DNA of 50,889 bases. Source: a virus (taxonomy: Duplodnaviria > Caudoviricetes). The position numbers were made by a program, and so were the translations under genes. The DNA is taken from IMG/VR virus record IMGVR_UViG_3300020034_000026, positions 1 to 50,889 of that record; one strand, given 5' to 3'. The notes below the pieces were generated by a model. That model worked only from the letters and a program-made list of their open reading frames with translations, had not been told where the DNA came from and ran no database searches. Positions 1 to 50,889 of this stretch are shown piece after piece (position 1 is the first letter of the stretch; each line of letters starts with the position of its first letter).

Positions 1-410
1 CGTAGCCCCACCAGAGCGACCGCATCGGTGACCGAGTGGGCTCGGTCATCTCCAGGATCAACTTCGTTCCCTGTGGTTTTCCATCTGTCGATTGATACAT
101 CGACAAAGATGAGTAGAGCGGTATCCCCTACTGCTACAGGGTAGGTAGTCCTGAATCCCCCACCTCCGAGAAACATGATTGGTACATTGGGGACAACGGC
201 ACGACGGTAGGCAATCCGACTACCATCTTCTCCAATCACTACTCTTCTCAGGAGTGGCTGGATGTCTGCTCTCTGAGTAGCAGAAGAGTACCTTTCAATT
301 CTGCCTGGCATGGACACGTGAAGCTCGCCAGCTAGATGAGACTCAATAGCCTTTACAATCACCTCAGAGAAAGTAGGGACCGCTCCATTGTCATCGTCAT
401 CGATGCTCAT
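1..410 (-). CDS. Baseplate spike protein (Gp138/gpV-like), N-terminal part; continues across the window end
   Basis: Not in the ORF track. ATG at 410 overlaps the stop of 407..1264 (ATGA). Translation MSIDDD...LHVSMPGRIERYSSATQRADIQPLL...VPNVPIMFLGGGGFRTTYPVAVGDTALLIFVDVSIDRW...RAHSVTDAVALVGL matches the Gp138 N-terminal pattern. Confidence 0.8.
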   Translation of the reverse strand, partial: MSIDDDDNGAVPTFSEVIVKAIESHLAGELHVSMPGRIERYSSATQRADIQPLLRRVVIGEDGSRIAYRRAVVPNVPIMFLGGGGFRTTYPVAVGDTALLIFVDVSIDRWKTTGNEVDPGDDRAHSVTDAVALVGL

Positions 411-1264
411 AGGGGATTCCCGTCTATCTGAGTGTGGCAGTCTGTTCCATGGGTATCGATGGTATGCCTAAGCTTCAAGACTTTGAATCGACCATGGATG
501 TATCTGGATCGAACTTCCATGGTCCCCCCTGGTACAAGTCGCGGGTACAGGAGATTCTTGACGGTGAGTATTGGAGGCTTTCCCTTTTCTGGGGGACTGC
601 CATACTCAGGTGAACCGATCATTCCACTATTGCTTCCAGGCAGAGAGCTAATCACTGCTACTTGATCCTTGCGTAGTTCTCCCTCGCCTAGAATCTGAAC
701 CGTCCCATCCTGTATCGACCACTGCTTTTGAAATGGGCGCAGAAGACGAGTCAACTCTTTGGAGATCAGTCCATCTACAACGATGCCCGATGCGACAGTG
801 GCAGTCATATCAGCCAGCAGATTGACTCTATCGAATGGGGCGCCCATGGCAGATAGAAGATCAAAGACCACGTTACGAACGGGCGTTCCCGCTCGGTACG
901 ATTGGCTCACTTGAGCGAAACGAAATGCTCTATCTCCATCACCAACTTGGATCTTGGTAACCCAAGATGTTCCATCTTTGACACTCTCACACCAGCGCAT
1001 GTCTCCTTCGAAAACTCTTTCTAAGGAACCATCAAAGCCAGCCTCAAGTCTGATGTACAGGGGCTTTTGCTGCAGTTCTCCACGAGTCTTCTCACTGAGA
1101 TTGATGACGACCAGATCACAATTGTTTGGATCTTTCCCTAGATGCTTGTCGATGTCTGCAATGATATGCAGGTCACGGATGACAATCGCATTAGGAGATT
1201 GTGAAAAGAACGATTGCGGTCTTGCAATCGTGAGAGAGACTCCTGTCTTGAAAAGCCTAGACAT
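407..1264 (-). CDS. Baseplate hub protein
   Basis: INLS...LEAG...VFEGD...GDGD...WSIQDG...GMIGSPE pattern; lies between the Dit-like/plug genes and the spike. Confidence 0.75.
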   Translation of the reverse strand: MSRLFKTGVSLTIARPQSFFSQSPNAIVIRDLHIIADIDKHLGKDPNNCDLVVINLSEKTRGELQQKPLYIRLEAGFDGSLERVFEGDMRWCESVKDGTSWVTKIQVGDGDRAFRFAQVSQSYRAGTPVRNVVFDLLSAMGAPFDRVNLLADMTATVASGIVVDGLISKELTRLLRPFQKQWSIQDGTVQILGEGELRKDQVAVISSLPGSNSGMIGSPEYGSPPEKGKPPILTVKNLLYPRLVPGGTMEVRSRYIHGRFKVLKLRHTIDTHGTDCHTQIDGNPL

Positions 1265-1601
1265 CGATTTCTAGATCAAGCATCTCTTGCGCTGAGAAGT
1301 AGTACACGACCACCCGGGTACCCATGTCTTCTAGAGTAGCGTCCACACCAGTGTGGGATTGATCGAACACGCGCAGAAGCCCTGGGGGGAATCGAGGATC
1401 AGTCACACGACCACCAATCGACGCCCCTAGAACTAGCTTGAGACCAGCCCTAATCATGTCTCCATCTGCGGTGAGTACATCCATGTACCAGGCTGAATCC
1501 CTAATGTTCCATCTGATATCGAGTGTGTATTGCACACCATCGAGTGCGGTCCCAACTCGATAGTTGGGCTCGTTAGGAACTAGTGGAAGAATGCCAGGCA
1601 T
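1257..1601 (-). CDS. Baseplate protein (plug-like)
   Basis: 114 aa with LDGVQYTLDIRWNIRDSAWYMDV...GLKLVLG; typical small gene between Dit-like and hub genes. Confidence 0.65.
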   Translation of the reverse strand: MPGILPLVPNEPNYRVGTALDGVQYTLDIRWNIRDSAWYMDVLTADGDMIRAGLKLVLGASIGGRVTDPRFPPGLLRVFDQSHTGVDATLEDMGTRVVVYYFSAQEMLDLEIDV

Positions 1602-1602
1602 T

Positions 1603-2262
1603 CTAGAAACTTCCGCCTGCTCCCGGCACTCCGCCCCCAGAACCTACAAGAGTTCTAGTTGGGGATCCTGCATTGTGGGCAGCGGTGAACCTTTGACGTA
1701 GGTAACGCTTGCGCTCTACCTCAGCGTTATCCTCATCGATCATCTCTTGACGAGTGATGCCCCTGCTCTTGGTATACTGGTCAACTGTCATTGCATTCTC
1801 ACGGTCAAGAGCTTTACTGCCTCGATTGACCTTGTGAGCAGCAGTAGGGGTAGCCACCAGCAGAATGGTTCGTTCATTCTGAACGATGGTGATCTCTCTA
1901 AATGTAGCCCTGAACCTCAACCCATTCATCGTGGATGTAGGTGGAGTGAGATTGGTAATGAACATACTGTTGAAGACTTCTTTGCTAGTCTCAACAGAAA
2001 AGGGTTCCTTTTTTAGACGCAAGTCTTTCAGAAACGCATAGGCATCTTGTGAGGGAAGAGTGGTCGGATTCCGCCTATCCGCAAGAGCACCTATTGGATT
2101 GTCGGAAACCACACCTTCGACCTGTAGAACCGTAGGCAGTAGCTTGACGTTGTTAGTTAGATCAGAACCATCTTCGACAGGGTCACTTGTCACTTCTGAG
2201 TCGAAGGAAGGTTCCTCTGCCAGAGCAACATCAATCTCGAATCCTGCGATGAACATAGGCAT
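1603..2262 (-). CDS. Dit-like tail tube initiator/baseplate protein
   Basis: IDVALAEEPSFDSEVTSDPVEDGSDLTNNV...GVVSDNP motif, immediately after the tape measure gene. Confidence 0.7.
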   Translation of the reverse strand: MPMFIAGFEIDVALAEEPSFDSEVTSDPVEDGSDLTNNVKLLPTVLQVEGVVSDNPIGALADRRNPTTLPSQDAYAFLKDLRLKKEPFSVETSKEVFNSMFITNLTPPTSTMNGLRFRATFREITIVQNERTILLVATPTAAHKVNRGSKALDRENAMTVDQYTKSRGITRQEMIDEDNAEVERKRYLRQRFTAAHNAGSPTRTLVGSGGGVPGAGGSF

Positions 2263-2276
2263 TGATATCTACCTAC

Positions 2277-3850
2277 CTATCTTCCTCGCGTGGTCGCACC
2301 AGCGCGACGCATGTTCGAGTCCCAGAGCGACTGAACTGCCTTGCGCACCTCGGTACCGATGCCGCCTGCGTCGGCTCCCGGGCTGGTGTGCACGTGGATC
2401 TGAGCGCTGAACTGGGGCGCCTGCACCTCTACTGCACCTCCGCTTACACCTGCGGCCAGAGGCGTACGCGCCACGCTACCGGCGACCACAGGGGCACCGC
2501 CCTCGCCTCGGGAGATCGCCCGCGCGCGATCAAGGAACTTGTGGGGACCGTCACCGAATCCGATGACGTCTTTAAGAGCTTCTTTTATGTTGTGGGGAAT
2601 CTGTTTGATTCCATCGATCACCCACTGAAAGAACTCTGCAAACTGTTGCTTCCACCATGCGATGGATTCATCGAAGGTACGAGTTAGCCACTGGTCAAGT
2701 TTCTTGAGAGTGCTCTCCCCACCATTGACCCACTTCCATAGATCTCTGATTGCCCAGTTGACCCCTGCAATGATGGCTATCAAGGCAACAAAAGGCGCAG
2801 CCGCAGCAACCCATGCCGCAGCACTAGCAACCGCGGTAGCGATCGCAACCCCCTTAACGACCAAGAAAGTAGTGGCAAGAGTCGTCAATACCAAACTAAG
2901 ATTTTCACTGTTCTCGGAAGACTAACTATTTTCTCTGTGACCTTGCCAATGATGGTTCCGACTTTCTCCGCTACTGGCCACACGAGCTTGAAGACGCGCA
3001 GTAGTATCTCCCCTACCTTGCGTGAGATGCCTGCTATGCGCACAAGCACTGGCCAAAGTTTGTGAAAGAAGCCGACCATGGAAACAACCCATCCGCGGAT
3101 CTTGCTAGCGATGAGTTCTCTGTTTGCCTTGATCCATTCGATACTCTTGTCTGCCACTCTTTGCAGAGTAGGAATCAGAGCAGAGACCAGTGTGTTTCGA
3201 AACGCTGCTGCAGCTGTCTTGACCTTGTCTACCTTGTCGCCCCACTCCTCAAGCGAGCGGGCATCGTCACCAGACAGCCCCCCACCCAGCTCCTTGAACT
3301 CCTCGCGTAGCTTGGCAATCCCACTCCGCCCCTCATTCAGGAATGGGATCATCTCCACACCTGATCGACCAAATATCTTCATGGCCCCGGCACTCTTCAG
3401 GGCACCATTAGGTATCTTGGAGAATACCTCTGCTATATCTCCGAGCACCTCATCAGTGTTGCGAACATGCCCACTAGCGTCCTCAACAGCTATGCCCATT
3501 TCCTTGAATAGCTTTTTTGATTCCTTGCTCCCATGGATTGCCCCATCCATGTTTTTGGCAAGAAACTTCAGGCCAGTAGATAGACCCTCGGCCCCGAGTC
3601 CAGATAGCTTTCCTGCAAACTCCAGCTCCTGAAGAGTTTCAATCAGGACTCCGGTCTTCTCACTGGTCTCTACAAGACGTCCAGCTAGCTCGGCAGTGTC
3701 ATCGATGAGAGAACCGAACCATTTGATTGTCTTGAATGCAACGATGCCAATCAGTGCCCGCTTGACGTTCTCTAACAGTTTGTCTGCAGCAGAGAATGAA
3801 GGCTTATCCGCCTTCAATGTCATCTTGGCAACTAGTTCGGCAAAAGTCAT
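2277..3850 (-). CDS. Tape measure protein, split into two frames (2885..3850 and 2277..2894) by a single -1 shift near 2890-2925
   Basis: Helical Ala/Gly-rich TMP-like sequence (SEKTGVLIETLQELEFA, AMKIFGRSG). The downstream frame continues with hydrophobic TMP-type segments. Joined length is about 525 aa. Confidence 0.8.
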
Positions 3851-3853
3851 TCT

Positions 3854-4081
3854 TTATCTCTTGGCTCTCTGTTCAGCGATGTCTCGCGCGCGAGCTATGC
3901 AATCAAGTACACGATTGGCATCGATGACGTACCCCAGGGTCACTCGATCAAACTCAGTGATCCTTAGTTGTCCCTCCTGGACAAGTCTCCAGACGACCCA
4001 TGTATCTCGGAGATCGTCGGGGAGGATGATGGGCTCTCCTCCTTGAGACGAATAAGGAACGTACTCACGAAGTCTAAAAAA
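3854..4081 (-). CDS. -1 frameshift extension of tail chaperone (gpGT-like)
   Basis: T TTT TTA heptamer at 4081-4075 (minus strand). The -1 frame is open: RLREYVPYSSQGGEPIILPDDLRDTWVVWRLVQEGQLRITEFDRVTLGYVIDANRVLDCIARARDIAEQRAKR*, ending 3 nt before the TMP ATG. Confidence 0.8.
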   Translation of the reverse strand, partial: FFRLREYVPYSSQGGEPIILPDDLRDTWVVWRLVQEGQLRITEFDRVTLGYVIDANRVLDCIARARDIAEQRAKR

Positions 4082-4524
4082 TCGGAGAAGTTCACCTCCA
4101 AGGAAAAGCGCAGAACCTTGAAGAGACTCATCCTCTTTCCTAGAAAAGCAAAATCGATATCCCCTCCGTTAGCCAAGTCGTATCGTTTCTTCTTCCCCTC
4201 GCGTTCTACGATGACACTCACGGGTGCCAAGAGCTGGCCAATCAGCGACCGCTGCTCGTCCACGGTCAGGCGCGCAAACAGCTGATCGACCACAGGGGCC
4301 AAGGCCCCTGCGTTGATTTTGGCAAGGCCCTCACCCACCCCGCCCGCACTTTTTGAGGGCCAGAGGCCTGCCAGGCCAGCCAGAGCGGGCCCAACAATGC
4401 GAATGAGTGCGTTCGCCAGATCAAGACTCTTCATGACAGGTAGTTGATAGACAGTAACCTCAAGTCCATCAATCGTCCGAGTCTCCGACGGCATCTCAGA
4501 GGAAGATGAGGATGGGGATGCCAT
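3964..4524 (-). CDS. Tail assembly chaperone (gpG-like)
   Basis: Between tube and TMP; ATG at 4524 overlaps the tube stop (TAATG); has EVNFSDFL at a slippery site. Confidence 0.75.
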   Translation of the reverse strand: MASPSSSSSEMPSETRTIDGLEVTVYQLPVMKSLDLANALIRIVGPALAGLAGLWPSKSAGGVGEGLAKINAGALAPVVDQLFARLTVDEQRSLIGQLLAPVSVIVEREGKKKRYDLANGGDIDFAFLGKRMSLFKVLRFSLEVNFSDFLDFVSTFLIRLKEESPSSSPTISEIHGSSGDLSRRDN

Positions 4525-4964
4525 TAGAAGCCGACCACCGAGCTTCCTGCATGGGCGGTGATCTGGGCGCAGAGGAACGCCCACTCGATCGCTCGTTGAC
4601 CATCACCGAATTCCAGGTTCGGCATCCTCTGGATTCGTGAGATAGCAGCCTCAACTACAGTGAGATTGTTTAGATCTTTCAACATGTAGTTACCGTATCC
4701 CGCAAGAGTGACTCTTCGACCCGCGTTGAAGCGGGCACTCAACAGATCATTGGAGGGGCTCTCTGCCTTGAGAGTAGTACGGATAATGCCACTCTCATTA
4801 TTGTTGATAATGAAAGTGACATCACCGGCGGGACCCACGTGGAGTTCACTGCCCTCTGCAGCATACTCGATGCTGATGAACACCCCATCCATCGGAGCCA
4901 GCAAGTCGATTCCACCCCACGACTGTGCAACTTCGCGAGGATTGTACTGTCCATAAAGAGGCAT
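4524..4964 (-). CDS. Tail tube protein (DUF3277-like)
   Basis: 146 aa, QYNPREV..SWGG.....DGVFISI motif; follows the sheath gene. Confidence 0.75.
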   Translation of the reverse strand: MPLYGQYNPREVAQSWGGIDLLAPMDGVFISIEYAAEGSELHVGPAGDVTFIINNNESGIIRTTLKAESPSNDLLSARFNAGRRVTLAGYGNYMLKDLNNLTVVEAAISRIQRMPNLEFGDGQRAIEWAFLCAQITAHAGSSVVGF

Positions 4965-4992
4965 CTTTTATCCTTTCTTTTTCTGCTCAGTC

Positions 4993-6351
4993 TCAGCGAG
5001 ACAGGATGATTCGGACGCCCACCTTATGGACGGCACCGGTCAACCGACCATTGGCTTCTAGCCCCGGAAAGTATCGAGCGATTCGGTCTGCTACAGACAT
5101 GTCCTCCACACGTGAGGTGATGAACTGAGGAGACTGTGGCGTCGGAGGATCATCCGAGGCGTCTGTCTCATCGATCATCACTCGATTGATGGCTCGACGG
5201 AAGGTGCCCCGAAGGGCTCCCTCAAGCTTGGTAACATCCTTGTTCGTATATGCCACCTTGGTAGGGGCGTTGAATATAACATCAGCGATGCTCTTGATGG
5301 CGTCATCCTTGATCCAGTCGATCGATCTCTGGATGTCAATGAAGTCGCCGTCCCCTGTGGTCCCGTTGAACGTGACATTGCGGCCTGCAACACGCTCGAT
5401 GGAGTTGCCATTCTTGGCTACAAGATTCCCTCTCTGAGTAGGAGTGAGGGCAACAGCGGGAACTCCGGCTAGCGTCTTCCCGAACCAAGTCTCACTGCCT
5501 GCATCCAGAGGTAGAACCTTCCCCATCCATGCGGCACCGAACATAGAAGCAGGGGAAGGATGGTAGTTGCCCATCACACGTGCGTGCGCATCGGAGGCAA
5601 TCGTATCCACGAGATCCCCACCCCCAGCAACAGTCGTAATGACCGCGCTGTCATTGGTATCGATGAGGGCAGTCTTCTCATTCGCCTCCACCCAGTCCTT
5701 TACGGCAGAGCCATAGGCAAAGGAGTTGAACATGGGGTAGACGCAGTAGAAGTCATCGTTCTCCAGACGAATAGCCGCAAGATCCGTGGCCACCCCTGGG
5801 TCAACGTGAGTCTGTGCAACAGCGAAGTCATCTACCGTAGAAACCTCGACAGAGAACCATCCCCCTGCCGCGTTAGCCGTGAGCACCAAAGTGGTGGTCC
5901 CCGTTGCCGTGTAGTTCTTCGATGCAACACCGTTGAATGCAGCAATCAGCTGGGTGACAATGGTTCCCGCTGTCGGCGATGCCGCCGAGGTAATCGACAG
6001 AACCGTGCGGCTGAAACCCTCCCCTTCTACAGTGACGTAGTAGATATGCGAGTTCCTCACCACAGGGGTAAGAATGTAGACCTGAGTTGGCGGGAGCAAA
6101 CCTCGACCGACCCGGGCATTCTGGGGATGAGGAGTCTGTGCCATGATGGCGTTGACAGCCCGCACCTCAGCGTCATCTGCGGCATACCCATCCGCCACCA
6201 TGTCAACCCCGCTAGCGTACAGACGCGAACGTTCAGAAGTTAACCATGGAGCATTGTACCCCAAGACAAAAGGAGTCCCGAACCCCAGACGAGTGAGGCC
6301 CCGAGAGTCTTTGGTAATGACCGCGTCAACGTAGTTTCTGATATCAGCCAT
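4993..6351 (-). CDS. Tail sheath protein (DUF3383-like)
   Basis: 452 aa; GSETWFGKTLAGV, GDFIDIQRSIDW and terminal LTGAVHKV motifs. Confidence 0.85.
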   Translation of the reverse strand: MADIRNYVDAVITKDSRGLTRLGFGTPFVLGYNAPWLTSERSRLYASGVDMVADGYAADDAEVRAVNAIMAQTPHPQNARVGRGLLPPTQVYILTPVVRNSHIYYVTVEGEGFSRTVLSITSAASPTAGTIVTQLIAAFNGVASKNYTATGTTTLVLTANAAGGWFSVEVSTVDDFAVAQTHVDPGVATDLAAIRLENDDFYCVYPMFNSFAYGSAVKDWVEANEKTALIDTNDSAVITTVAGGGDLVDTIASDAHARVMGNYHPSPASMFGAAWMGKVLPLDAGSETWFGKTLAGVPAVALTPTQRGNLVAKNGNSIERVAGRNVTFNGTTGDGDFIDIQRSIDWIKDDAIKSIADVIFNAPTKVAYTNKDVTKLEGALRGTFRRAINRVMIDETDASDDPPTPQSPQFITSRVEDMSVADRIARYFPGLEANGRLTGAVHKVGVRIILSR

Positions 6352-6376
6352 GTTCTCTCCTCACCTCAATCATCTG

Positions 6377-6958
6377 TCATGGTTCGGGAACATCAAACTC
6401 AAGAGTCTTGATCACCCCTGCATCTTCCAGATTCAGGGTGACTCCAACTCTCTCAATATAGGTGGTGTACTCTTCAACCTGAGAAGAAATGAAAGCTCTC
6501 ATCTCTGTCTGAGCGCGAGCCTCGAATCGAGCCCCAACGATTCCATCAATAGACAGGATAGGACTCCATGCGGCCACTCCGATGCCTGCATTGTTCAGTG
6601 CATAGTTCACTGAGTCTGTGAAGGAACGGGCAACGATGTTGTTCAACTCAAACTCAGGAGTAGTAGCAACATCCTCCATGTCTCCGAAGTAGCGAACCGT
6701 AATTGTCATCTCTCGCTGGCCACGAGTCTTGACAATAAGCTCTCTACCATCGGAGCCTGTAGAGTCTGGGTTATCGGCCACTACGTTGTAGTCTTGTCCA
6801 CGCGACACGATACTCATGATGGCAAAATCGATCATGGGTACCGGAGGACGAGGGGCATCCTTTGGCTGTCTGGACCAAATGACTTTGTTGACAGGTAGAC
6901 CACTACTCACAACAAGCATATGGTGAAGTGCCCGCTTGACTTGATCCCACTGAATCAT
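6377..6958 (-). CDS. Neck/tail terminator protein
   Basis: VIWSRQ..DAPRPPVP and YTTYIERV motifs; directly upstream of the sheath. Confidence 0.7.
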   Translation of the reverse strand: MIQWDQVKRALHHMLVVSSGLPVNKVIWSRQPKDAPRPPVPMIDFAIMSIVSRGQDYNVVADNPDSTGSDGRELIVKTRGQREMTITVRYFGDMEDVATTPEFELNNIVARSFTDSVNYALNNAGIGVAAWSPILSIDGIVGARFEARAQTEMRAFISSQVEEYTTYIERVGVTLNLEDAGVIKTLEFDVPEP

Positions 6959-8424: not shown

Positions 8425-8457
8425 CAGACATGCAGATCAAACAAGAAAAGAAGACAA

Positions 8458-8892: not shown

Positions 8893-8895
8893 CGC

Positions 8896-9354: not shown

Positions 9355-9366
9355 CCATCACTCACC

Positions 9367-9726: not shown

Positions 9727-9735
9727 TTCCTAGAA

Positions 9736-41840: not shown

Positions 41841-41850
41841 TACCTCTACT

Positions 41851-42156: not shown

Positions 42157-42161
42157 CGATA

Positions 42162-42596: not shown

Positions 42597-42598
42597 AC

Positions 42599-42841: not shown

Positions 42842-42895
42842 TTGAGCATGTATTACCCCACCACAGGGGTATTGCGCAAGCTGAAAAATGAATCG

Positions 42896-43291
42896 TCATC
42901 CGCAAGTTTTTGATAATAACAACATAGAAAGAATCGTTAAGCACACAAGTATAAAGCCTCTAGTATGCCGACAAATTCTTTCTAATCCTTGAATCTGCAT
43001 GAATATCGAATTGCATCGATCGCTCATGACTCCGGCTACTCTCTCAAGACTCTGCTGAGATACCATGCCAGGCAAAGGCATTATCACAGGTACATCACTT
43101 ACATTACTTACATCACTTACCTCAGTCACTACCTCTGCATCATCTACAGCTGGCCACGTATCACTCTCTGTAGGAGATGATAAGGATGGGGGTGGTAAAG
43201 GTAAGGATATCCTTGTCATCTTAGAACCCTTGGAGTAGTACTCAACAGCCCCTTTAAGGCCCCTCTGGAAAGAGTATCTACTCCTAGCCAC
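42896..43291 (-). CDS. Hypothetical protein with C-terminal TM segment
   Basis: AT-rich ORF with VS(D/N) 9-bp tandem repeats and a hydrophobic C-terminus. Confidence 0.45.
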   Translation of the reverse strand: MARSRYSFQRGLKGAVEYYSKGSKMTRISLPLPPPSLSSPTESDTWPAVDDAEVVTEVSDVSNVSDVPVIMPLPGMVSQQSLERVAGVMSDRCNSIFMQIQGLERICRHTRGFILVCLTILSMLLLSKTCG

Positions 43292-43298: not shown

Positions 43299-43766
43299 TT
43301 ATAGCTTTCCTAGAGGAGGAAGCTTGACGGTAGTATTCTCGTTACCATTCTTTTTGGTAGCAACAGGAGTGGTAAGACTTTTCAGCTCAACCATCTCTGA
43401 AAGTTTCTTGGCGGCTTTGTCCATTCTGTCTGCCGCAGGTCCAGACAAGGAAGCCATGGCAGAGTTGAAGATTGCTTTACTATGGGAATCCCATAGGGAG
43501 ACAAAAATCTCATCCACAATCTTTCCGATCTGAGGGGTGAAAGTCCATCCTGCACCGATGATAGCCGCTTCCCCCCAGTTCAGGAATAGCTTGCGAGCTT
43601 CCGCCTTGTCGGTCGGCATGAATTGAACAACCTGAGAAAAGACGGCACGAGTCACTTTCTTGATCTGTTCGGTAGTGGCATCATGCTTTCTTTTCATGTA
43701 GTCAAACACTCTCTCTATAACCAGAGGAATGGGAATGAGTGAGAGTAGCCACTGAGGATCCATCAT
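43299..43766 (-). CDS. Hypothetical protein with N-terminal hydrophobic segment
   Basis: WLLSLIPIPLVI; ATGA-coupled. Confidence 0.55.
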   Translation of the reverse strand: MMDPQWLLSLIPIPLVIERVFDYMKRKHDATTEQIKKVTRAVFSQVVQFMPTDKAEARKLFLNWGEAAIIGAGWTFTPQIGKIVDEIFVSLWDSHSKAIFNSAMASLSGPAADRMDKAAKKLSEMVELKSLTTPVATKKNGNENTTVKLPPLGKL

Positions 43767-44209
43767 GGTTGCTTTACCTCCGGGGTAGGGGCTTGGGTGG
43801 GCGCTACAGGCAAGGGACTGGTAGGGGATGGGACAACCACAGGGGCCCGATTTGCTTTCTTCAAGCGACGAGCGTCTGCCTTCGGAAGATTGCGAGCTAG
43901 CACTGCTTTGATGATTGCAAGGTCGGCAATGATCGCATCGATCTTGTCACCCTGATCTTGATCTGTATCTTCCTTCGCTGCCTGATCTCTGATGATGCGC
44001 GTGCTAACGACCTTGGCTTGCTTGGCTACCGCATCCGTGTTGTCAAGTGACTCGTTCGTCTCGACGACTTTATCCTCAACCTTAGTGCTCTTGTAGTAAG
44101 CACCTCCACCGAGACCCCCTGCCCCTAGAAGAACACTAACGATAAAGACTGCCCAAGACTTCTTGACCGGTATGTAGAACGTCCGATCATTGTCTCTCTC
44201 AAACATCAT
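43763..44209 (-). CDS. Membrane-anchored coiled-coil protein (lysis/spanin candidate)
   Basis: WAVFIVSVLLGAGGLGGGAYY TM, coiled coil and Pro-rich tail. Confidence 0.5.
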   Translation of the reverse strand: MMFERDNDRTFYIPVKKSWAVFIVSVLLGAGGLGGGAYYKSTKVEDKVVETNESLDNTDAVAKQAKVVSTRIIRDQAAKEDTDQDQGDKIDAIIADLAIIKAVLARNLPKADARRLKKANRAPVVVPSPTSPLPVAPTQAPTPEVKQP

Positions 44210-45048
44210 GGATTCCGGGGGCGGTTCCATATGATAATAGCTCCTCGGATGATGTCTGCCGCAATCGCGGGAGCCTGGTACTCCATCTGGTAGACGCCAG
44301 GAATCAGCACAGTGTCGGGAAAGTTGAAAGTCCGCGGCCCCTCCCCTGTGGTTGACACAGTGATGGTCGAGACGATCGCGCTTCCGATTCCTCCGCTGTC
44401 GATCTTGTGCAATCTTAGGAGTCTGTTGCCAGCTTCATTGGCCTCACCATGAATGATGACGGACAACAGCTGGGCACCTTCCATGATTGGTACAGGGATA
44501 TGCAGGCGACCATTGTTGGCAACAAGCCACCCTCCTGCATCTACTCCTGTAGAAGTGAGGTAGGAGCAAGCTGCAGGAGTTGGAGTATTCATCATGCAGG
44601 CAGCGATACCCAGACGATCACTCACAGTGAAGTAATTGCGATCGGACTGGAGATCTCCACCAACATCCATGGGTCCAGCAAACTCGGCCCCACCGGTAGA
44701 GAACAGAAGTGCCCCATTCAGGATCGATATCTCATCATTGAAAGTAACGTTACCGTTGATCTCGACAGCATTCTCGAAACCACAGGGGCCCTGAACTTCA
44801 AGTTCTCCCTCAATGGCTAGGTTCCCGTCTCCGGTACCATCGGCATTGATGCTATGGTTCCCGAAGAGTACTCCATCCCGGAGGTACTCTTGCCACTGAA
44901 AATCCAGGTTGGCTAGCCAATTGAAGTACTCAGCTGGAGGTGCAACTTCACCGGCGAGCCATCCACTATCTTTCTTGATCGATGGGGGCTCAACGATCAG
45001 ACCCCCAACGTTTGCCCATCGTCCAACTTGTGTCGGCTTGACTGCCAT
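44206..45048 (-). CDS. Tail fibre/baseplate-attached protein
   Basis: KKDSGWLAGEVAPPAEYFNWL...QW N-terminal anchor motif; follows the DUF2612-like gene. Confidence 0.65.
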   Translation of the reverse strand: MAVKPTQVGRWANVGGLIVEPPSIKKDSGWLAGEVAPPAEYFNWLANLDFQWQEYLRDGVLFGNHSINADGTGDGNLAIEGELEVQGPCGFENAVEINGNVTFNDEISILNGALLFSTGGAEFAGPMDVGGDLQSDRNYFTVSDRLGIAACMMNTPTPAACSYLTSTGVDAGGWLVANNGRLHIPVPIMEGAQLLSVIIHGEANEAGNRLLRLHKIDSGGIGSAIVSTITVSTTGEGPRTFNFPDTVLIPGVYQMEYQAPAIAADIIRGAIIIWNRPRNP

Positions 45049-45072: not shown

Positions 45073-45741
45073 TCAGTTGGAGCGGGCGCCCCCGAGAATG
45101 CCAGAATCGAATCCTGGGCCATCATTGAACGTAAACATGTCTTCTGTAGGAGCGGGTGAAAACTCCATGACTGTTCTCACCCCTGCTGAAGTAGCAGCAC
45201 CCAGGAACATGATGAGTTGATCCGCTTGTTCGACACCCACAATCATATCTGTGAAGTCGATCAGCTGAGTTGCCGGTGGTGAGATCGTGTAGACAAGAAT
45301 CCCGGCCCCACTAGACAACACAAGACGAGCTATATGGAGCAACTCTTCTGGTGTACCACTACTCTGATTGACCAGAATTCTGGCATTGATGAGATTGAGG
45401 TACTCTGGATCAGTCAACGTTCCACGATCTCGTTGTCCAACAATCCTACCGATGACATTCAGCTGTTCCCCTTCTGAAGTGGTAAGGGAACGGTTGTGAA
45501 GCATTTGGCAGAACATCTCTTCTATCTGTTGAACCGGTGCAATAAAAGCACTCAGCAGAGCTTGAATTTTGGGGCGACGGAATCTCTCAATCAGTCTTTC
45601 GAGGGCTTGAGCAGTGTGGTCATGGATGCAAAGATCAGCACCTATGACCACAGGGGGGATGTCATCGTCATCTCCACCACCAAGGGGACCGAACAGTCCG
45701 CCCCACTCGGAGAATCCCCAGTATCCGTCACCCCAGCTCAT
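45073..45741 (-). CDS. Baseplate wedge protein (DUF2612-like)
   Basis: GEQLNVIGRIVG...LTDPEY..LI.ARILVNQSSGT motif. Confidence 0.75.
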   Translation of the reverse strand: MSWGDGYWGFSEWGGLFGPLGGGDDDDIPPVVIGADLCIHDHTAQALERLIERFRRPKIQALLSAFIAPVQQIEEMFCQMLHNRSLTTSEGEQLNVIGRIVGQRDRGTLTDPEYLNLINARILVNQSSGTPEELLHIARLVLSSGAGILVYTISPPATQLIDFTDMIVGVEQADQLIMFLGAATSAGVRTVMEFSPAPTEDMFTFNDGPGFDSGILGGARSN

Positions 45742-45744: not shown

Positions 45745-48700
45745 TTACCATCCAAATGCGGTCAACGAATTGGCTGCATTGTCGATAGCTTCTGCAGCGG
45801 CACCGGTGAATACCCATTGCCGCAGACAGAAAGCAACAGGACTGGTTCCCGTACCCCCACCGATACCCTTGAAAGAACCATCGGTCACAGTGGCATTGTA
45901 AGTGCCTGTGATGGTCTCATAGGGAGTACGTACTCTAACTCTTCCAGCCGTACGATTGTACGCAGCAAGGATAGGAAGAACATGACGCCTATGATCCACA
46001 AGTCCGTCCGTCGTCACTCCTGCGCAGTTGATACGTAGGATTCCTGTCGATTGTACAGCGACCCAAAGCGGTGTTCCTGAAGTAGCACCGATGACATAGA
46101 ACTCCCGCGCGGCACCAGCACTAATAAACTGCCACCATCCATAGAAAGCAACACTGGTAGAGTTGGGGTTGTAGAGAGCTTGATTGGAGAAGATGAATCT
46201 CTGAGTTGCTACCTCAGTGAATCCCACCCCATTCTCGGCCCACCCAATAATGTCATTGACAAAGGTGGGGCTAGCGTTTGCGTCCAGAGTTGCCGCGCCT
46301 ACCACAGGGGCCAGGGGCGTGGAGGCATCCTGCATCAACCATCCAGCGGTCGGCGAGGGGAGCGCAGGGTCGGCTCCGGTGAACTCTGCAGCTGTGGCGG
46401 GGATGACCCCGGTGCCCCAGTTGCCAGCCTCGCGCGTGTACACGGTACGGCTCTTGAAGGCCCCCGTGAGCCGGCGCGCGGTCGATCCATCGGGCGCGGA
46501 AAACGGCGGGTCTGAGTCCGCCGAGTAGATGTAGTCGCCGACGGTACCGAGTCCCTGTCCTCCACCAATCTGAATGATGGGGGCTACGGCAATACCATCG
46601 ATGCCAGTACCATCACCCGTGTTCCCACAGATGAATGGTACACGCGGCAAGGCACCAAATCCTCCGATACCGCCAAGCTTCACCTTTCCGCTAGTGATGC
46701 CACGATAGTGATTGAAAGTAATCTGAAGCCCCTCGATGCCGAATGTACTAGACACCGATAGACCATTGACTAGTACGCCTGGGCCACGATTGACGATCAG
46801 ATTGCCCTGAAACAGAACGTTGTCTGATCGAATACTGTTGGCATTGATGATGACAGACTGAGGAATCGATCCACTCGTGTGCCTATGCGTGAACTCGTTG
46901 CCCTGAACCATCAGCTCGGGAACGTTTTCAAAGTTGGCGCATGGAGCGATCCCGAACTGCTCAATCTTGTTTCCCTGAAACTGAACCTGCGCAGGATTCG
47001 ATCCACCTGTAGCAGCAATCAGGACTGCCTCATTGTCTGTGTCACTCACCGGTCGCGTGATGGTGTTGCCACGGAAAATGAGCTTGTTGAAAGTAGACCG
47101 GAACGACACTACAGGCTGGTTGTGGTTACTCGGAGGCTCAATGATGTTGTCCTCAAACAACATGTTGCTGCAGTCGAGTGCGTCAATACATCCTGCAACG
47201 CGGTTGCGCGCAAAGATGAACGAGGAGTTTGGATGGGTGTTATTGAGCCCGGTAAGAGTGACAGCAATAGTTCCTGCTGTACTTTCGATGATGTTGTCGC
47301 AGATGATCGATCGACGCGGTGATGTATTCTCTGGATTCGATCCACCCGTGGGCTCATGGTCAATTGCCTGGTCTCCAGTGTTACGGAATCGATTTCCGAT
47401 AATCATATAGTCGTCAACATTGCGCTGCAGACCAATACCGCTTCGATTGCAGTAGTTAAAGTCACAGTGAGCAATGAGGATGTTGACAACACCACCAATG
47501 ACATCTCCACCGACGGCATGAAAACGCCACGTCACCCCACCATCGTTGATAGAACTACCAGTCCCCGTAGGAGCGGTGACCCCTGTCGTGCCAGCAGACA
47601 AAGCTTCATAGACATTTCCCGCGTTGGTGCGGTAGCCACCGAGTCCAACGACGCTCCCTGTGGTCCATGCCACGGGATGCCCCAAGGGCGCACCAACCAT
47701 CTGAATGGCATCACCAGGACTATTGTAGAACCAGCAGTTGGTGATGCTAACACCATCGACCAAACCTAGATCCGTGCTGTTCCCGCCGAACCGGAGATTG
47801 TGAGTTTGTTCCTCGATGTTGGTGAGATTGGCAACGTTGCCATCAAATGCCATGTCTCGGAAACTGATTCGAGAACAGTTGCCATGGACATAGACTCCAT
47901 ACCAAGTTCCGTCACCACCATCACCAGTCATTTTGATGATGGAACCGGGGCCTTCACCTACGATCTCGAAATCGTGGACGTTGTGAAGAATGACCGCTCC
48001 AAGGTCTTCCGCACGAGGAGTGAGATAGACACCTTTGGGAATAAAGATTCCCCGGAGACCATTGGCTTTGGCGAAATCAATAGCAGCCTGAATCGCTGCA
48101 AGGTCATCCGTTGCCCCATCGCCCACCGCTCCGCCAGCGTAGGCCACGTCTCTGATGTTGGCGTGGGTCCCCGCCCCACCCCCTCCGCTCCCCGGGGGCC
48201 CGGGCTCCCCTGGTTCGCCTGGGTCCCCCTGCTCTCCCTGCGGTCCTTCGAGCCCAACCACGTCGATCCAGTCGGGCACCCCAGCAGTCAACGAAAGGAT
48301 CTGTCCGTTGGACCCAGGAGCTAGGCGAGTGACTCGGCCAGCGCCATTTGCATACCAAACGGTGCCGGATGCAGCCCCTGCCAGCTGCCCTAGATCCGTC
48401 TTCTCATTCGTAGTCGGGATACGGGGGACTGCTGCCTCGAACAGAGATAGAGCAGCCTTCTCCCCGGTGGTCGGAAGCCTTGCATCAACATCTCTGATGA
48501 GTTGATCTTGCTCGATGTCCCATCCAGTGAATTGGAGGCTCTCTCCTCTACCAGGAATCCTCCTCCCATTTGGAAGTAGAACAGCAATAGCTCCCTGCGT
48601 ACTCTTGAATCTTGTGGCATCAGATGGATCCGTTTCGAATGATGACTCTTCTCCTTCACCATCACTAAAGGTGTACTTGAGAAGATAGGTCCCTGATACG

Positions 48701-48930
48701 TCAAGCGGGAACGTTGCCGAGGCAGATGTACTACCAGTCAAGACAGAAGATGACCCCGGGGGACGAACCAGGGCCCACTGCCGAGTCCCTGCACCTGCGT
48801 TGCTTGGGTCGGTTGCCGTCGCTGTAACTGAACCACCTGCGATCAGCGAGGCAGGGAACGCGCGGGACTGCCCACCGATGCCGGCACTCTGGCCAGCAAC
48901 GTCAAGCTTGATCGTGATTGGATTGGCCAT
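45745..48930 (-). CDS. Tailspike/receptor-binding protein: Ig-like N-terminus, collagen-like G-X-Y linker, pectate-lyase-like beta-helix, C-terminal lectin-like domain
   Basis: GPQGEQGDPGEPGEPGPPG; GAVGDGATDDLAAIQAAID...IFIPKGVY; repeated I.GN beta-helix rungs. Start MANPIT at 48930. Confidence 0.8.
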   Translation of the reverse strand: MANPITIKLDVAGQSAGIGGQSRAFPASLIAGGSVTATATDPSNAGAGTRQWALVRPPGSSSVLTGSTSASATFPLDVSGTYLLKYTFSDGEGEESSFETDPSDATRFKSTQGAIAVLLPNGRRIPGRGESLQFTGWDIEQDQLIRDVDARLPTTGEKAALSLFEAAVPRIPTTNEKTDLGQLAGAASGTVWYANGAGRVTRLAPGSNGQILSLTAGVPDWIDVVGLEGPQGEQGDPGEPGEPGPPGSGGGGAGTHANIRDVAYAGGAVGDGATDDLAAIQAAIDFAKANGLRGIFIPKGVYLTPRAEDLGAVILHNVHDFEIVGEGPGSIIKMTGDGGDGTWYGVYVHGNCSRISFRDMAFDGNVANLTNIEEQTHNLRFGGNSTDLGLVDGVSITNCWFYNSPGDAIQMVGAPLGHPVAWTTGSVVGLGGYRTNAGNVYEALSAGTTGVTAPTGTGSSINDGGVTWRFHAVGGDVIGGVVNILIAHCDFNYCNRSGIGLQRNVDDYMIIGNRFRNTGDQAIDHEPTGGSNPENTSPRRSIICDNIIESTAGTIAVTLTGLNNTHPNSSFIFARNRVAGCIDALDCSNMLFEDNIIEPPSNHNQPVVSFRSTFNKLIFRGNTITRPVSDTDNEAVLIAATGGSNPAQVQFQGNKIEQFGIAPCANFENVPELMVQGNEFTHRHTSGSIPQSVIINANSIRSDNVLFQGNLIVNRGPGVLVNGLSVSSTFGIEGLQITFNHYRGITSGKVKLGGIGGFGALPRVPFICGNTGDGTGIDGIAVAPIIQIGGGQGLGTVGDYIYSADSDPPFSAPDGSTARRLTGAFKSRTVYTREAGNWGTGVIPATAAEFTGADPALPSPTAGWLMQDASTPLAPVVGAATLDANASPTFVNDIIGWAENGVGFTEVATQRFIFSNQALYNPNSTSVAFYGWWQFISAGAAREFYVIGATSGTPLWVAVQSTGILRINCAGVTTDGLVDHRRHVLPILAAYNRTAGRVRVRTPYETITGTYNATVTDGSFKGIGGGTGTSPVAFCLRQWVFTGAAAEAIDNAANSLTAFGW

Positions 48931-48931
48931 C

Positions 48932-50269
48932 TTATGGAGTCCCATCGGTTGCGATGACAATAATGCGGCTACTATCATACAGAGCTAGTTGCCGCAAACT
49001 CATTGGTAGAACAGCGGTACCCGCAGGACTAGGGGAAAATCCAACTCGAACATCAGTGACATTCAGAACTCCCTGAACCTTAAATGCTTGTCCTGAGATT
49101 GCGCTAGGGACAACATCCCGTCCAGACTCTTGGTTATCCCCGTAGTCAATGATGGCCCTCACCACAGCCGCACTGCCTGGGTATACTCGTCTATCCTTTT
49201 GCAAGGCAACACTGATGTAAACAGGTATCTCAGTAGGACGAGTATGGAAGATGTCTTGTACCGTTCCTTCACTGTCGATGATGGTGCCGGCTATACTTCC
49301 GAAAGTTGGGATACCACCAGAGACACAAGCCCAGAGAGTATCTCTGATATCTTGGTCCACCCCTCCACGTACGAGCGCCTCTACGGAATGGGGTGGTAGA
49401 CCAAAGGCATCATAGTAGTCTGTTGAATTCTTGAAGACGCTAGCAGCGATCACTCCAGGTAGGCGAAGCAGTCGTGCACGGATCGCATCAGGAGGGGAAG
49501 TCCCCTTCCCTGCAGTCTCTTGACCACGACGGATGCGTAAACTTTCGTTCGATTCCTTCGATCGCCCCAAGTCTGCATCTAGAAGATTCCGAACGCTCTG
49601 CAGACCACCAACGGCAGTCACAATTTCATTGATAGTGTTGGCTAACCCAAGAATGGCATCTAGCTCAACAGACTCTATCGGGGTATCGATGACAGCCGTT
49701 CCCTCACCGATGTACCTCCACGATACCGATCCATCGACGACCACAGGGAGGTCCGTCGTAGGCCCCCCGCTGGCTGCACTCACTCCATCGAAGAGTGCTT
49801 GGTAGACACGCGACGCATTAGTGACTCTGTCACCTTGGCTGTATCCAGTGCTGGCTATCCATGCAGTAGCAGCGACCAGCGTAATTGCCCCTATGGTCTG
49901 AAATTCTTTGCCAGTGACTTCGACAGCAAACTTGGTTCGGATAGGAACTACTGTTCCGGGGCTACCGGTGAGAGTCTCTATCACAGTCGATGGGGTGGGC
50001 AGTCTTGGCTCAGTCCCAGTGATAGCCGAGACCTGAACCAAAGACTCATCCACTGCTGCATCAGGATCAGCCGATGCGTTGACTGCCTGCCCAAACTGGC
50101 AGAGCAAAGCAAGACGTTCAGAGAAGATAGAGATCAGGTGGCCCACCAGACTCTTGTCTTCCAGAGCTTCTACTGGAATGGACAGAACTCCAGCTATACT
50201 ACTCCTCAGTCCTGCAGCTATCTCTTCCTGAGTCTCGATAACCAACCCTTGGGGAGTAAGAGCAATCAT
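48932..50269 (-). CDS. Baseplate J-like protein with inserted CBM-like module
   Basis: LTPQGL...DPDAA...GRSKESNESLRIRR...GLPPHSVEALVRGG...GIPTFG. Confidence 0.85.
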   Translation of the reverse strand: MIALTPQGLVIETQEEIAAGLRSSIAGVLSIPVEALEDKSLVGHLISIFSERLALLCQFGQAVNASADPDAAVDESLVQVSAITGTEPRLPTPSTVIETLTGSPGTVVPIRTKFAVEVTGKEFQTIGAITLVAATAWIASTGYSQGDRVTNASRVYQALFDGVSAASGGPTTDLPVVVDGSVSWRYIGEGTAVIDTPIESVELDAILGLANTINEIVTAVGGLQSVRNLLDADLGRSKESNESLRIRRGQETAGKGTSPPDAIRARLLRLPGVIAASVFKNSTDYYDAFGLPPHSVEALVRGGVDQDIRDTLWACVSGGIPTFGSIAGTIIDSEGTVQDIFHTRPTEIPVYISVALQKDRRVYPGSAAVVRAIIDYGDNQESGRDVVPSAISGQAFKVQGVLNVTDVRVGFSPSPAGTAVLPMSLRQLALYDSSRIIVIATDGTP

Positions 50270-50641
50270 CTAGATACTCCTTTGGAAGTTGACTTTACCG
50301 AGTTCAGTGATAGCTACTATGTCAACGTCAAGTTTGCGTGTGCTTGTATTGAAATTGACAGTGAGTTTGTCGATGCCAGTGACGGCAAGACTTGTAAGAG
50401 TTGCATCTCGAAAGATAGACAGTGCTCGAACCTGCCTGAACTTGTGGCCCAGCAACTCCTGAAAGTAGGGAACACCCTGCTCTAGATTGTTGAACCATTC
50501 CCCAAGAAACGTGGAGATGGAGATATCCAGAAGTTGGCGAACACCAATGGATCCGAGAGCAAAATGCAACTGCCCCCCTGTGGTATCCAAGTCCCCATCA
50601 CTCTCAGAGAGCAGGATATCGAGTCTATCATTCTCAGTCAT
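50270..50641 (-). CDS. Baseplate wedge/sheath initiator (gp25-like)
   Basis: Q.L.I....FLGEWF.N...GVPY motif; between spike and J genes. Confidence 0.7.
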   Translation of the reverse strand: MTENDRLDILLSESDGDLDTTGGQLHFALGSIGVRQLLDISISTFLGEWFNNLEQGVPYFQELLGHKFRQVRALSIFRDATLTSLAVTGIDKLTVNFNTSTRKLDVDIVAITELGKVNFQRSI

Positions 50642-50645
50642 GTAT

Positions 50646-50889
50646 CTATCGTACCTTTGCAATGGTAGACAGATAGCTAGCGTTACCAGCCTTGAAGGTA
50701 GTAATGACCGCTCGTAACGCAGTGGCTGCAGGACCCCCGCCCGGGATCGCTGCGATGGCCGTGGCGATGGCGTCCAGCACCAAGTTCTCGGCCGCGCGGT
50801 ACGCCGGCGCGAGGATGGTGGGCTGGGCCCCCGCCCCTCCTACACGGATCTCGGTGGCGGAGTACTCAACCACAGGGCCCCCGTCCATC
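50646..50889 (-). CDS. Baseplate spike protein, C-terminal part
   Basis: In frame with 1..410 when the ends are joined (…VGLR|MDGGPVVEYSATEIRVGG…YLSTIAKVR). Confidence 0.7.
   Translation of the reverse strand, partial: MDGGPVVEYSATEIRVGGAGAQPTILAPAYRAAENLVLDAIATAIAAIPGGGPAATALRAVITTFKAGNASYLSTIAKVR

Follow-up and report, generated by a model that had tools for sequence, protein, structure and literature searches.

The Escherichia coli phages LLS and P1 carry one Chi site per 1.9 kb, Chi is their top octamer without codon usage explaining it, and the sites are strongly biased in orientation (20 of 23 in LLS and 32 of 32 in the Pseudomonas phage MD8), and Chi-rich lambdoid phages are described as typically devoid of a recombination module (PMC12315714). 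Stoperators are 13-mers that lie in promoters and short intergenic gaps, are oriented with transcription and are read by a monomeric protein (PMC9283540). For uptake sequences, Findlay & Redfield report tripeptide doubling and placement at poorly conserved residues (PMC2817400). Here we analysed the phage record IMGVR_UViG_3300020034_000026, an entire IMG/VR entry of 50,889 bp (hereafter the window, meaning this whole stretch of DNA), across which an asymmetric 9-mer, ACCACAGGG, is written 44 times, almost always inside genes. We read the copies, with a probability of roughly 0.3, as recognition sites for an infected-cell factor that would also be present in the hosts of three further viral contigs from soil. 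Their likeliest role would be that of a Chi-like 'self' signal addressed to a host helicase-nuclease, on phage DNA that would be permuted.

Recounting returned the numbers of the original prediction: 44 exact copies of ACCACAGGG, 27 on the plus strand and 17 on the minus strand, the first at 69 and the last at 50869-50877, 35 of which extend to the 10-mer ACCACAGGGG (22 plus, 13 minus). In 100 dinucleotide-preserving shuffles the 9-mer occurred 0.63 ± 0.94 times on average and never more than 5 times, and the motif read backwards has no copy in the window. The tenth base is G in 35 copies, A in seven and C in two, and the base preceding the motif is a purine in 37 of 43 copies, so that the extended form is R-ACCACAGGG-R, a sharp and asymmetric motif of 9-11 bp. 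Allowing up to one mismatch to the 10-mer gave 53 matches in the window; 18 of these carry one mismatch, against a shuffle expectation of 3.8, and half of the 18 differ at position 10 (A in seven, C in two). One-base variants within positions 1-9 thereby amount to just 9 sites, compared with about 4 expected for all one-mismatch variants. The suggestion that many copies read TTGACCACA or TCAACCACA did not hold (4 and 5 of the 44, respectively), and the proposed likeness to DnaA boxes gained no support: within the window the TTATNCACA-type 9-mers TTATCCACA and TTGTCCACA are absent, the relaxed box TT[AG]TNCACA occurs once, and the three bases upstream of the motif are diverse.

The individual copies are given below with strand, orientation relative to the local gene, encoded residues and the open reading frame (ORF) concerned. 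L389 denotes a metagenome contig closely related to part of the window, and G001 and G002 are two other motif-rich viral contigs; all three are compared with the window further on.

69-77, minus: copy reading ACCACAGGGA, sense, T-T-G, ORF 3-410 (minus)
2485-2494, plus: antisense, A-P-V-V, ORF 2277-2894 (minus)
4289-4298, plus: antisense, A-P-V-V, ORF 3964-4584 (minus)
5352-5361, minus: sense, T-T-G, tail sheath gene 4993-6351 (minus)
6059-6068, plus: antisense, T-P-V-V, tail sheath gene
7190-7198, plus: copy ending GGGA, antisense, F-P-V-V, ORF 6958-8424 (minus)
7308-7317, minus: sense, T-T-G, ORF 6958-8424 (minus)
7636-7644, minus: copy ending GGGC, sense, T-T-G, ORF 6958-8424 (minus)
8285-8294, plus: antisense, P-P-V-V, ORF 6958-8424 (minus)
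9507-9516, minus: sense, T-T-G, ORF 9367-9726 (minus)
12937-12946, plus: antisense, P-C-G, ORF 12724-13014 (minus)
13479-13488, plus: antisense, A-P-V-V, ORF 13331-13528 (minus)
14270-14279, plus: antisense, A-P-V-V, MuF-like gene 13519-15246 (minus)
14737-14745, minus: copy ending GGGA, sense, T-T-G, MuF-like gene
16192-16201, minus: sense, T-T-G, portal gene 15248-16885 (minus)
17264-17272, plus: copy ending GGGA, antisense, V-P-V-V, large terminase gene; homologues differ at these columns
20005-20014, plus: antisense, P-P-V-V, ORF 19746-20117 (minus)
20589-20598, plus: antisense, A-P-V-V, ORF 20351-20695 (minus)
24468-24477, plus: sense, T-T-G, ORF 24045-24635 (plus)
26669-26678, plus: antisense, A-P-V-V, ORF 26446-26865 (minus)
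26896-26905, plus: antisense, A-P-V-V, ORF 26862-27263 (minus)
27076-27085, plus: antisense, A-P-V-V, ORF 26862-27263 (minus)
31120-31129, minus: intergenic, in the divergent region between ORF 30470-31108 (minus) and the UDG-PolA gene 31162-33549 (plus)
31534-31543, plus: sense, T-T-G, UDG-PolA gene
31897-31906, minus: antisense, P-L-W, UDG-PolA gene, in a stretch missing from the G001 and G002 homologues
34363-34372, minus: antisense, A-P-V-V, PD-(D/E)XK exonuclease gene; kept in L389
35801-35810, minus: antisense, S-P-V-V, DUF669 gene; kept in L389
35899-35907, plus: copy ending GGGA, sense, T-T-G, DUF669 gene; kept in L389
37454-37463, minus: antisense, P-C-G, SNF2 helicase gene; kept in L389
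37757-37829: convergent pair (copies 37761-37770, plus, and 37816-37825, minus), SNF2 gene, T-T-G-E ... S-P-V-V; kept in L389
39006-39015, plus: sense, N-H-R-G, ORF 38801-39295 (plus); kept in L389
41060-41069, plus: sense, T-T-G, endolysin gene; L389 reads ACCACAGGAG, a synonymous GGG/GGA difference
41551-41560, minus: antisense, P-C-G, endolysin gene; kept in L389
42860-42869, plus: intergenic, between ORFs 42599-42841 and 42896-43291; kept in L389
43836-43845, plus: antisense, A-P-V-V, ORF 43763-44230 (minus)
44343-44352, minus: sense, T-T-G, ORF 44206-45048 (minus)
44779-44788, plus: antisense, P-C-G, ORF 44206-45048 (minus)
45647-45656, plus: antisense, P-P-V-V, ORF 45073-45741 (minus)
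46301-46310, plus: antisense, A-P-V-V, tail fibre/spike-like gene 45745-48978 (minus)
47656-47664, minus: copy ending GGGA, sense, T-T-G, gene 45745-48978 (minus)
49740-49748, plus: copy ending GGGA, antisense, L-P-V-V, baseplate wedge gene 48932-50269 (minus)
50575-50584, minus: sense, T-T-G, ORF 50270-50662 (minus)
50869-50877, plus: copy ending GGGC, antisense, G-P-V-V, ORF 50646-50888 (minus)

In our own ORF-based gene model of 74 ORFs, 42 of the 44 copies lie within ORFs, as had been predicted, spread over about 30 genes, and the remaining two are intergenic (31120-31129 and 42860-42869). The genic copies encode x-P-V-V 21 times, T-T-G 15 times, P-C-G four times, and P-L-W and N-H-R-G once each; the frames named in the original prediction were all recovered, except that its three P-C-G copies become four with the addition of the one at 12937. 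Two of the six possible frames hold 36 of the 42 copies: T-T-G, in which the coding strand reads ACC ACA GGG, and P-V-V, in which it reads the reverse complement, CCT GTG GTn. The consequence is visible in the proteome, where Thr-Thr-Gly occurs 17 times against 5.3 expected from composition (3.2-fold; 15 of the 17 spelled by the motif) and Pro-Val-Val 25 times against 4.9 expected (5.1-fold; 21 of the 25 spelled by the motif). In alignments of the large terminase (TerL) with 10 homologues, and of the polymerase and SNF2 proteins with two homologues each, the motif-encoded residues fall in variable columns or lineage-specific insertions. A synonymous-codon shuffle within genes, which leaves the proteins unchanged, produced 1.69 ± 1.21 copies (maximum 7 in 1,000), and a codon-order shuffle produced 0.37, compared with the 42 observed in genes, which settles the codon-preserving check suggested earlier in favour of a real excess. 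The codon shuffles and the tripeptide excess therefore show that the constraint acts on DNA, not protein, as first proposed, and that it altered the phage proteins. The combination of frame bias, tripeptide excess and variable columns is the pattern that Findlay & Redfield give for chromosomal uptake sequences (PMC2817400).

These results bear directly on the possibility that the excess merely follows from base composition, codon usage, recurring protein motifs or faulty assembly. Repeated protein motifs do generate the word elsewhere: the multiple ACCACAGGG copies of other viral contigs (L179, L247, L258, L166, L271, L193 and L269), which we rejected as further examples of the array, stem from genes for collagen-like Gly-X-Y repeats, in which GGA CCA CAG GGn encodes Gly-Pro-Gln-Gly. 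In the window, however, the copies are distributed over some 30 genes, several frames and both strands, the dinucleotide, synonymous-codon and codon-order shuffles yield 0.4-1.7 copies against 42-44, and an independent metagenome contig, L389, keeps the sites; the shuffles and this contig exclude a by-product for practical purposes. Collagen-like Gly-Pro-Gln repeats are a confounder in any search with ACCACAGGG.

The array has no polarity, in agreement with the first reading of the sequence: plus and minus copies are interleaved, and 16 are sense and 26 antisense to the local gene. Gaps average 1181 bp, close to the 1.2 kb first estimated, with a coefficient of variation of 0.84 against 0.96 for random placement (P = 0.17), and the largest gap, 4045 bp, is unremarkable, so the spacing is indistinguishable from random placement. 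The structural and early regions hold sites at comparable densities, 0.92 and 0.78 per kb, respectively. Three exact inverted pairs lie within 150 nt of each other, compared with about 2.7 expected from site density by our own arithmetic, and single copies have no hidden inverted partner in the window. In the convergent pair at 37757-37829 the arms pair over 15 bp (GATGACCACAGGGGA / TCCCCTGTGGTCATC), more than the motif alone gives. The intergenic copy at 31120-31129 sits in a small inverted repeat (CTACCAC ... GTGGTAG) within the region 31109-31161, between the leftward early genes and the polymerase operon, which may be a control region.

Comparison with related sequences, proposed earlier as a check, was possible over short and long evolutionary distances. 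The metagenome contig L389, 92-98.6% identical to window positions 33248-42942, keeps 9 of the 10 window sites; the site lost is that at 41060, through the synonymous GGG/GGA difference, and L389 has one extra site, where it encodes His (CAC) and the window Gln (CAA). Across the aligned region 4.2% of bases differ, yet only 1 of 90 motif bases does, although with such small numbers this difference alone is not significant. Scanning IMG/VR for convergent 9-mer pairs yielded three more many-copy records, G001, G002 and G003, all of them genome fragments. Between orthologues of G001 and G002 (55% amino-acid identity), which hold 32 and 21 core sites, just 4 sites are co-positioned, and two of these form a hairpin pair adjoining the SNF2 helicase gene. 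Since sites are so rarely co-positioned, it is their number that is maintained and not their positions.

The three fragments share an ACCACAG core with the window at about one site per kb but differ from one another in the flanks, as dialects do. In G001 (46.7 kb, about 52% complete) the 9-mer occurs 20 times and the hexamer CCACAG 99 times, where about 23 would be expected of the hexamer, and (C)ACCACAG(G) is the preferred form; G002 (16.7 kb) prefers GnCCACAGG; and G003 (32.2 kb) has 39 copies of GACCACAG. As in the window, the sites have no polarity, are mainly intragenic and fall predominantly in the xTT and xVV frames. G001 and G002 are mutual kin (45-67% amino-acid identity), and they have in common with the window just a very distant replication module and terminase (PolA 20-21%, TerL 32% identity); G003 shows at most a weak Sak4-like match to the window, together with its own exonuclease of the same PHROG. 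Convergent site pairs 36-56 nt apart occur in every one of these other motif-rich contigs (G001 9983-10044 and 13505-13567; G002 12316-12389; G003 27126-27179), their arms pair beyond the motif into long hairpins, and the co-positioned pair of G001 and G002 lies in a small ORF upstream of the SNF2 gene. When viral records were scanned for divergent pairs, or for convergent pairs at a wider spacing, no other motif-rich contig emerged.

The closer relatives of the window, by contrast, are without the motif. Twenty-five TerL relatives, up to 48-55% identical, have 0-1 copy of the 9-mer each, and in MW202455, which has a like module and a PolA of 40% identity, CCACAG is frequent but without flank preference. 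The trait therefore does not follow phage descent and is patchy on the phage tree. Some TerL relatives carry repeats of their own (GTTTAAAC palindromes and iteron clusters), which we rejected as the same system because they are clustered regulatory repeats of another kind. In the distant TerL relatives L149, L150, L151, L153 and L136, 6-24 copies of GTTTAAAC form the centres of longer palindromes, such as cagagagcGTTTAAACgctctctg. They cluster in one portion of the genome and probably serve as operators or terminators.

A reader outside the phage lineage, either a host-cell factor or the product of a gene moving between phages, is what a core present in unrelated phages and missing from closer relatives points to. 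The same distribution bears on the alternative that the copies bind a phage-encoded, monomeric, sequence-specific protein, similar to the immunity repressor that mycobacteriophages direct at stoperators or acting in coating or compaction, which would silence, organise or protect the genome. A sharp, asymmetric 9-11 bp motif would suit a monomer with two small domains, which is how stoperators are read, and a total near 44 in 51 kb is comparable in magnitude to the 'more than 20' stoperators reported (PMC9283540). The phage also offers candidates: one copy (31120-31129) lies in a divergent early intergenic region, many early proteins are without known function, and of the four helix-turn-helix proteins nominated in the original prediction two small ones, 30056-30439 and 38234-38491, do have HTH_17 matches, albeit weak and under the Pfam cut-off, whereas 12724-13014 and 26446-26865 have none. 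However, 42 of the 44 copies are intragenic, 16 sense and 26 antisense, whereas stoperators are promoter-borne or intergenic and follow transcription (PMC9283540). Moreover, blastp and phmmer detected no small protein common to the window and G001-G003, site positions turn over in a way unusual for regulatory sites, and the presence of the core in very distant or unrelated contigs, together with its absence from the nearest TerL and PolA relatives, weighs against a vertically inherited phage reader. We regard a phage-encoded binder as possible but doubtful.

The patchy distribution rather favours a reader supplied by, or matched to, the host. Three points here are inferences of ours: that the reader comes from the host, that it works as a helicase-nuclease and that the phage has a permuted genome. 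In such a scheme, an end-processing helicase-nuclease of the RecBCD or AddAB type would enter the free ends of injected or rolling-circle phage DNA, read the motif-bearing strand and switch from degradation to recombination or end protection. Were the genome permuted, ends could lie anywhere and face either direction, so that a site would be useful at any position and in either orientation, and the lack of polarity would follow; selection would then gather sites wherever the protein tolerates them, chiefly as Thr-Thr-Gly or Pro-Val-Val. Both ends of the window fall among the tail/baseplate genes and leave the wedge (48932-50269) apart from the hub (407-1264), an arrangement consistent with permutation or with a circular map opened at an arbitrary point. 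We rank a Chi-like signal first because Chi is the best documented route by which a phage gathers a host-read word.

Our confidence stays near 0.3 because the known Chi-rich phages are polar, the word is longer, the phage has its own recombination module and no enriched host has come to light, and each of these points weighs against a Chi-like signal. The strong orientation bias of Chi is absent from the window, with its 27/17 split and interleaved strands. The Sak4-like AAA_24 protein, the PD-(D/E)XK exonuclease and the DUF669 protein run contrary to reliance on host recombination. Chi sequences of fewer than 8 nt exist. The word described here has 9-10 constrained bases, compared with the octamer Chi sequences of PMC12315714. 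A single host factor reading the core would also need host variants matching the phage-specific flanks, which is an added assumption. The search for the motif in candidate hosts, another of the checks first proposed, came out negative in a sparse sample: the 10-mer reaches at most 16 copies in any of 301 Acidobacteriota genomes and RACCACAGGGG at most 21 in any of 401 Pseudomonadota genomes, both far below phage density, about 20 other sampled genomes are at background level, and the unpublished genomes G033, G058, G161 and G705 included in these tallies are all negative. Convergent 10-mer pairs with a spacing of 30-60 nt are present in more than 119 metagenome contigs, where our own estimate predicted roughly 8, and none of the 119 matches listed is a chromosomal contig with scattered copies.

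Several narrower host leads were followed and set aside. The order to which G017 belongs (7 genomes) shows a mild excess alone (22-47 copies against 3-20 for the control), an Alicyclobacillaceae genome has 805 copies of a 7-mer against 512 for the control, a three-site cluster in G678 belongs to no motif-rich region, and a scan of genome contigs with a 14-mer gave at least 120 matches, all single and taxonomically scattered. A search of a protein atlas with the portal protein provided no host lead.

The metagenome matches and the dialects also bear on the view that the word resembles an uptake sequence, or is another 'molecular drive' word, that spreads in one host-phage community without helping the phage. 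Point by point its pattern fits best, with 9-10 bp, weaker flanks, about one site per kb and both orientations; to these are added the frame bias (36 of 42 in 2 of 6 frames), the enriched tripeptides and the poorly conserved residues (compare PMC2817400), as well as the occasional inverted hairpin pairs and the dialects around a common core. However, no cellular genome with about one copy per kb was found among the sampled genomes or the metagenome matches listed, and a phage with its own polymerase and no integrase recognised among the 40 ORFs scanned would hardly be suited to accumulating sites through uptake. In competent bacteria, besides, prophages and islands usually contain few uptake sequences. 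We therefore consider this origin improbable, in spite of the fit.

Taking hosts, phages and dialects together, we tentatively entertain as a serious possibility a more general description that leaves the reader open: the ACCACAG arrays may form a new class of phage 'genome barcode', an orientation-free self-mark of 9-10 bp with lineage dialects, read by host or phage (through a helicase-nuclease, another defence or recombination system, or an uptake-like one), selection on which would have shifted the frequency of two tripeptides 3-5 fold. Its origin or spread would have been independent in two or perhaps three soil phage lineages, at the least two, that are unrelated to each other.

Apart from L389, the metagenome pair matches listed are hairpin elements, mainly in soil contigs of about 58% G+C, built of three phased units of the type ACCACAGGGG-rCACAGAGG-nnCACAGGG. 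In this soil element (L302, L307, L318, L320, L331, L342 and about 80 more of L299-L417, and L418, L421 and L452-L468 of G005), units of about 10 bp follow the order cttTA-A[A/C]CACAGGGG-rCACAGAGG-nnCACAGGGtaa, and the element stands either alone or as two inverted copies that make a long hairpin, in many cases with a run of T behind it. An Acidobacteriaceae genome contains it too, and it belongs to no Rfam family. It may be of the REP/REPIN kind (the repetitive extragenic palindromic class) or a protein-binding array. As a source of the phage word the acidobacterial element was rejected: among 17 elements sampled without bias, A(A)ACACAGGGG predominates as the first unit and just 4 carry ACCACAG, so the resemblance to the phage word is weak. 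A second hairpin family, in contigs of 32-43% G+C (L299, L305, L369, L375, L391, L396 and L415, also L359 and L384), has the form gggcaACCACAGGGGgattgcccctac...gtaggggcaatcCCCCTGTGGTtgccc and carries the word in the loop of a small GGGCAA/TTGCCC stem with GTAG nearby, the latter being a feature of classical REPs. In a third element (L300, L376, L387, L390, L392 and L401) a conserved 36-nt core is bounded on either side by the 10-mer, and the element as a whole lies between gaccaat/gacaaat direct repeats, which gives it the look of a miniature inverted-repeat transposable element. The Elusimicrobiales genome G009, to which L098 belongs, has at least seven convergent 10-mer pairs, always 109-113 bp apart (for example, C7:74771-74893, C11:212287-212405 and C15:484060-484182), which makes this another dispersed repeat, one whose terminal inverted repeats contain the word. 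Neither the window nor 10 loci bearing hairpin or repeat elements matched any Rfam family.

What the phage itself encodes bears on the remaining explanations. The record is classed as 'linear', with a CheckV completeness estimate of 98%, and the public runs that contain its sequence are labelled soil metagenomes. Pfam and PHROGs matches identify a tailed phage with a contractile tail; these family scans took in 40 of the 74 ORFs, with 30 compared to Pfam and 30 to PHROGs in overlapping sets, so that an unrecognised enzyme may exist. The genes recognised are as follows.

407-1264: baseplate hub
4993-6351, minus: tail sheath
9929-10876: major head protein
11441-12676: head protease
13519-15246, minus: MuF-like protein
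15248-16885, minus: portal
17083-18609, minus: large terminase (TerL)
27941-30055: primase/helicase
31162-33549, plus: UDG-PolA fusion
33513-34598, plus: PD-(D/E)XK exonuclease
34519-35349: Sak4-like AAA_24 protein
35365-36171, plus: DUF669 protein
36861-38246, plus: SNF2 helicase
40856-41716, plus: amidase_2 endolysin
45745-48978, minus: tail fibre/spike-like gene
48932-50269, minus: baseplate wedge

The UDG-PolA protein joins a uracil-DNA-glycosylase superfamily domain (residues 25-164) to a 3'-5' exonuclease and a family A polymerase. The 373-residue protein encoded at 39292-40413 has an N-terminal DUF7768 domain and is kin to nucleoside 2-deoxyribosyltransferases (PHROG 355); judged by this similarity, it is a possible candidate for a nucleotide- or DNA-modification enzyme. 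Ten early proteins have no PHROGs or Pfam family. Cultured phages are all distant, with best matches of 38% identity for TerL and 40% for PolA; tblastn against cultured phages gave nothing over 40% identity, and megablast against phage records gave no match. Two runs from one sample of another study (X3 and X4) contain a contig about 97% identical to window 1-20000, with 536 substitution places, in which a same-length stretch of 231 bp at window 10237-10469, in the region of the major head protein gene, is swapped for diverged sequence.

Nick consensus motifs exist in other phages, namely T5-like and some Pseudomonas phages, where they mark localised single-strand interruptions. The copies in the window could likewise be targets of a site-specific nicking or DNA-modifying enzyme and provide marks needed for replication, packaging or escape from defence. 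A sharp motif with few one-mismatch variants outside position 10 (9 against about 4) is typical of enzymatic recognition, the copies lie on both strands, and the phage has the DUF7768 protein, the UDG-PolA fusion and many early proteins without known function. Yet no methyltransferase, nickase or HNH/GIY-YIG nuclease was recognised in the 40 of 74 ORFs scanned, and enzymatic marking leaves the absence of the motif from closer relatives unexplained, which makes it an unlikely account.

The replication genes raise the further possibility that the copies are start or loading sites at which the primase-helicase primes the lagging strand, with the hairpin pair in the replication module as the main origin. 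The 27 and 17 sites amount to one per 1.9-3 kb of each strand, close to the length of bacterial Okazaki fragments, and the phage encodes its own primase/helicase (27941-30055). The co-positioned sites of G001 and G002 include the hairpin pair adjoining the SNF2 gene, and the window has its pair with a 15-bp stem inside SNF2. Known primase recognition sites, however, are about 3 nt long, the window primase-helicase has no detectable homologue in G001-G003, close inverted pairs are at chance level (3 against about 2.7 within 150 nt), and closer relatives with a like module lack the motif. Of the functional explanations, priming strikes us as the most remote.

If a cellular or phage machine does read the word, the array offers a handle on a recognition system in uncultured soil bacteria, be it a new Chi, a self/non-self mark or an uptake-type signal. 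The specificity is already spelled out, and the natural dialects offer co-variation tests and make the reader findable. The array also shows selection on a DNA word visibly reshaping a phage proteome, which has been documented so far mainly for the chromosomes of competent bacteria, and such words are possible markers that link uncultured phages to each other and to their hosts. The points of interest are thus the site density, the visible effect on the proteome and the dialects in unrelated phages. The original prediction knew of no description of the motif, and we found no microbial one either: in the full text of the literature, the 10-mer, an 8-mer and the reverse complement returned just primers and unrelated eukaryotic sites, with nothing comparable among phage motifs.

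Among the systems that the array resembles, HIP1 (GCGATCGC) of cyanobacteria and their phages also occurs about once per kb, mostly in genes, and is mirrored between host and phage, but it is a palindrome linked to a methyltransferase, whereas the motif of the window has no such symmetry and the 40 ORFs scanned include no recognised methyltransferase. The nick consensus of T5-like and some Pseudomonas phages is asymmetric, about 9 nt long and above chance, with some 5-15 sites at which nicks were shown biochemically; the window has 44 sites, known from sequence alone. REP and REPIN elements are extragenic palindromic units, often in inverted pairs, and bacterial contigs from soil do contain REP-like hairpins built on a related unit, whereas the window copies are single, intragenic and without a cryptic inverted partner. 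The uptake signal sequences (USS) of Pasteurellaceae and DNA uptake sequences (DUS) of Neisseriaceae vary by lineage as dialects of one core, and some of their copies form hairpins as inverted pairs. Like the window motif, they are asymmetric words of 9-12 bp at about one per kb in both orientations, and they share its biased frames, enriched tripeptides and poorly conserved residues, as PMC2817400 describes; they differ in that they lie on the chromosomes of naturally competent bacteria, whereas the word described here is carried by a phage that has replication genes of its own, and none of the cellular genomes sampled is enriched in it. The stoperators of Cluster A mycobacteriophages also place more than 20 copies of an asymmetric word over a phage genome of about 50 kb (PMC9283540), but 42 of the 44 window copies are in genes and bear no relation to the direction of transcription. 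The Chi-rich phages of E. coli (LLS and P1) and Pseudomonas (MD8) share with the window a short, asymmetric, mostly intragenic word that is selected at the DNA level and is the top oligomer; their sites are octamers, strongly oriented, clustered toward one end and matched by a known host motif, whereas the window has 9-10 fixed bases, a 27/17 split and random spacing (PMC12315714). The array is thus akin to the genome-wide iterated recognition words represented by Chi, USS/DUS and stoperators, while departing from each class that could be tested in at least one of its defining properties.

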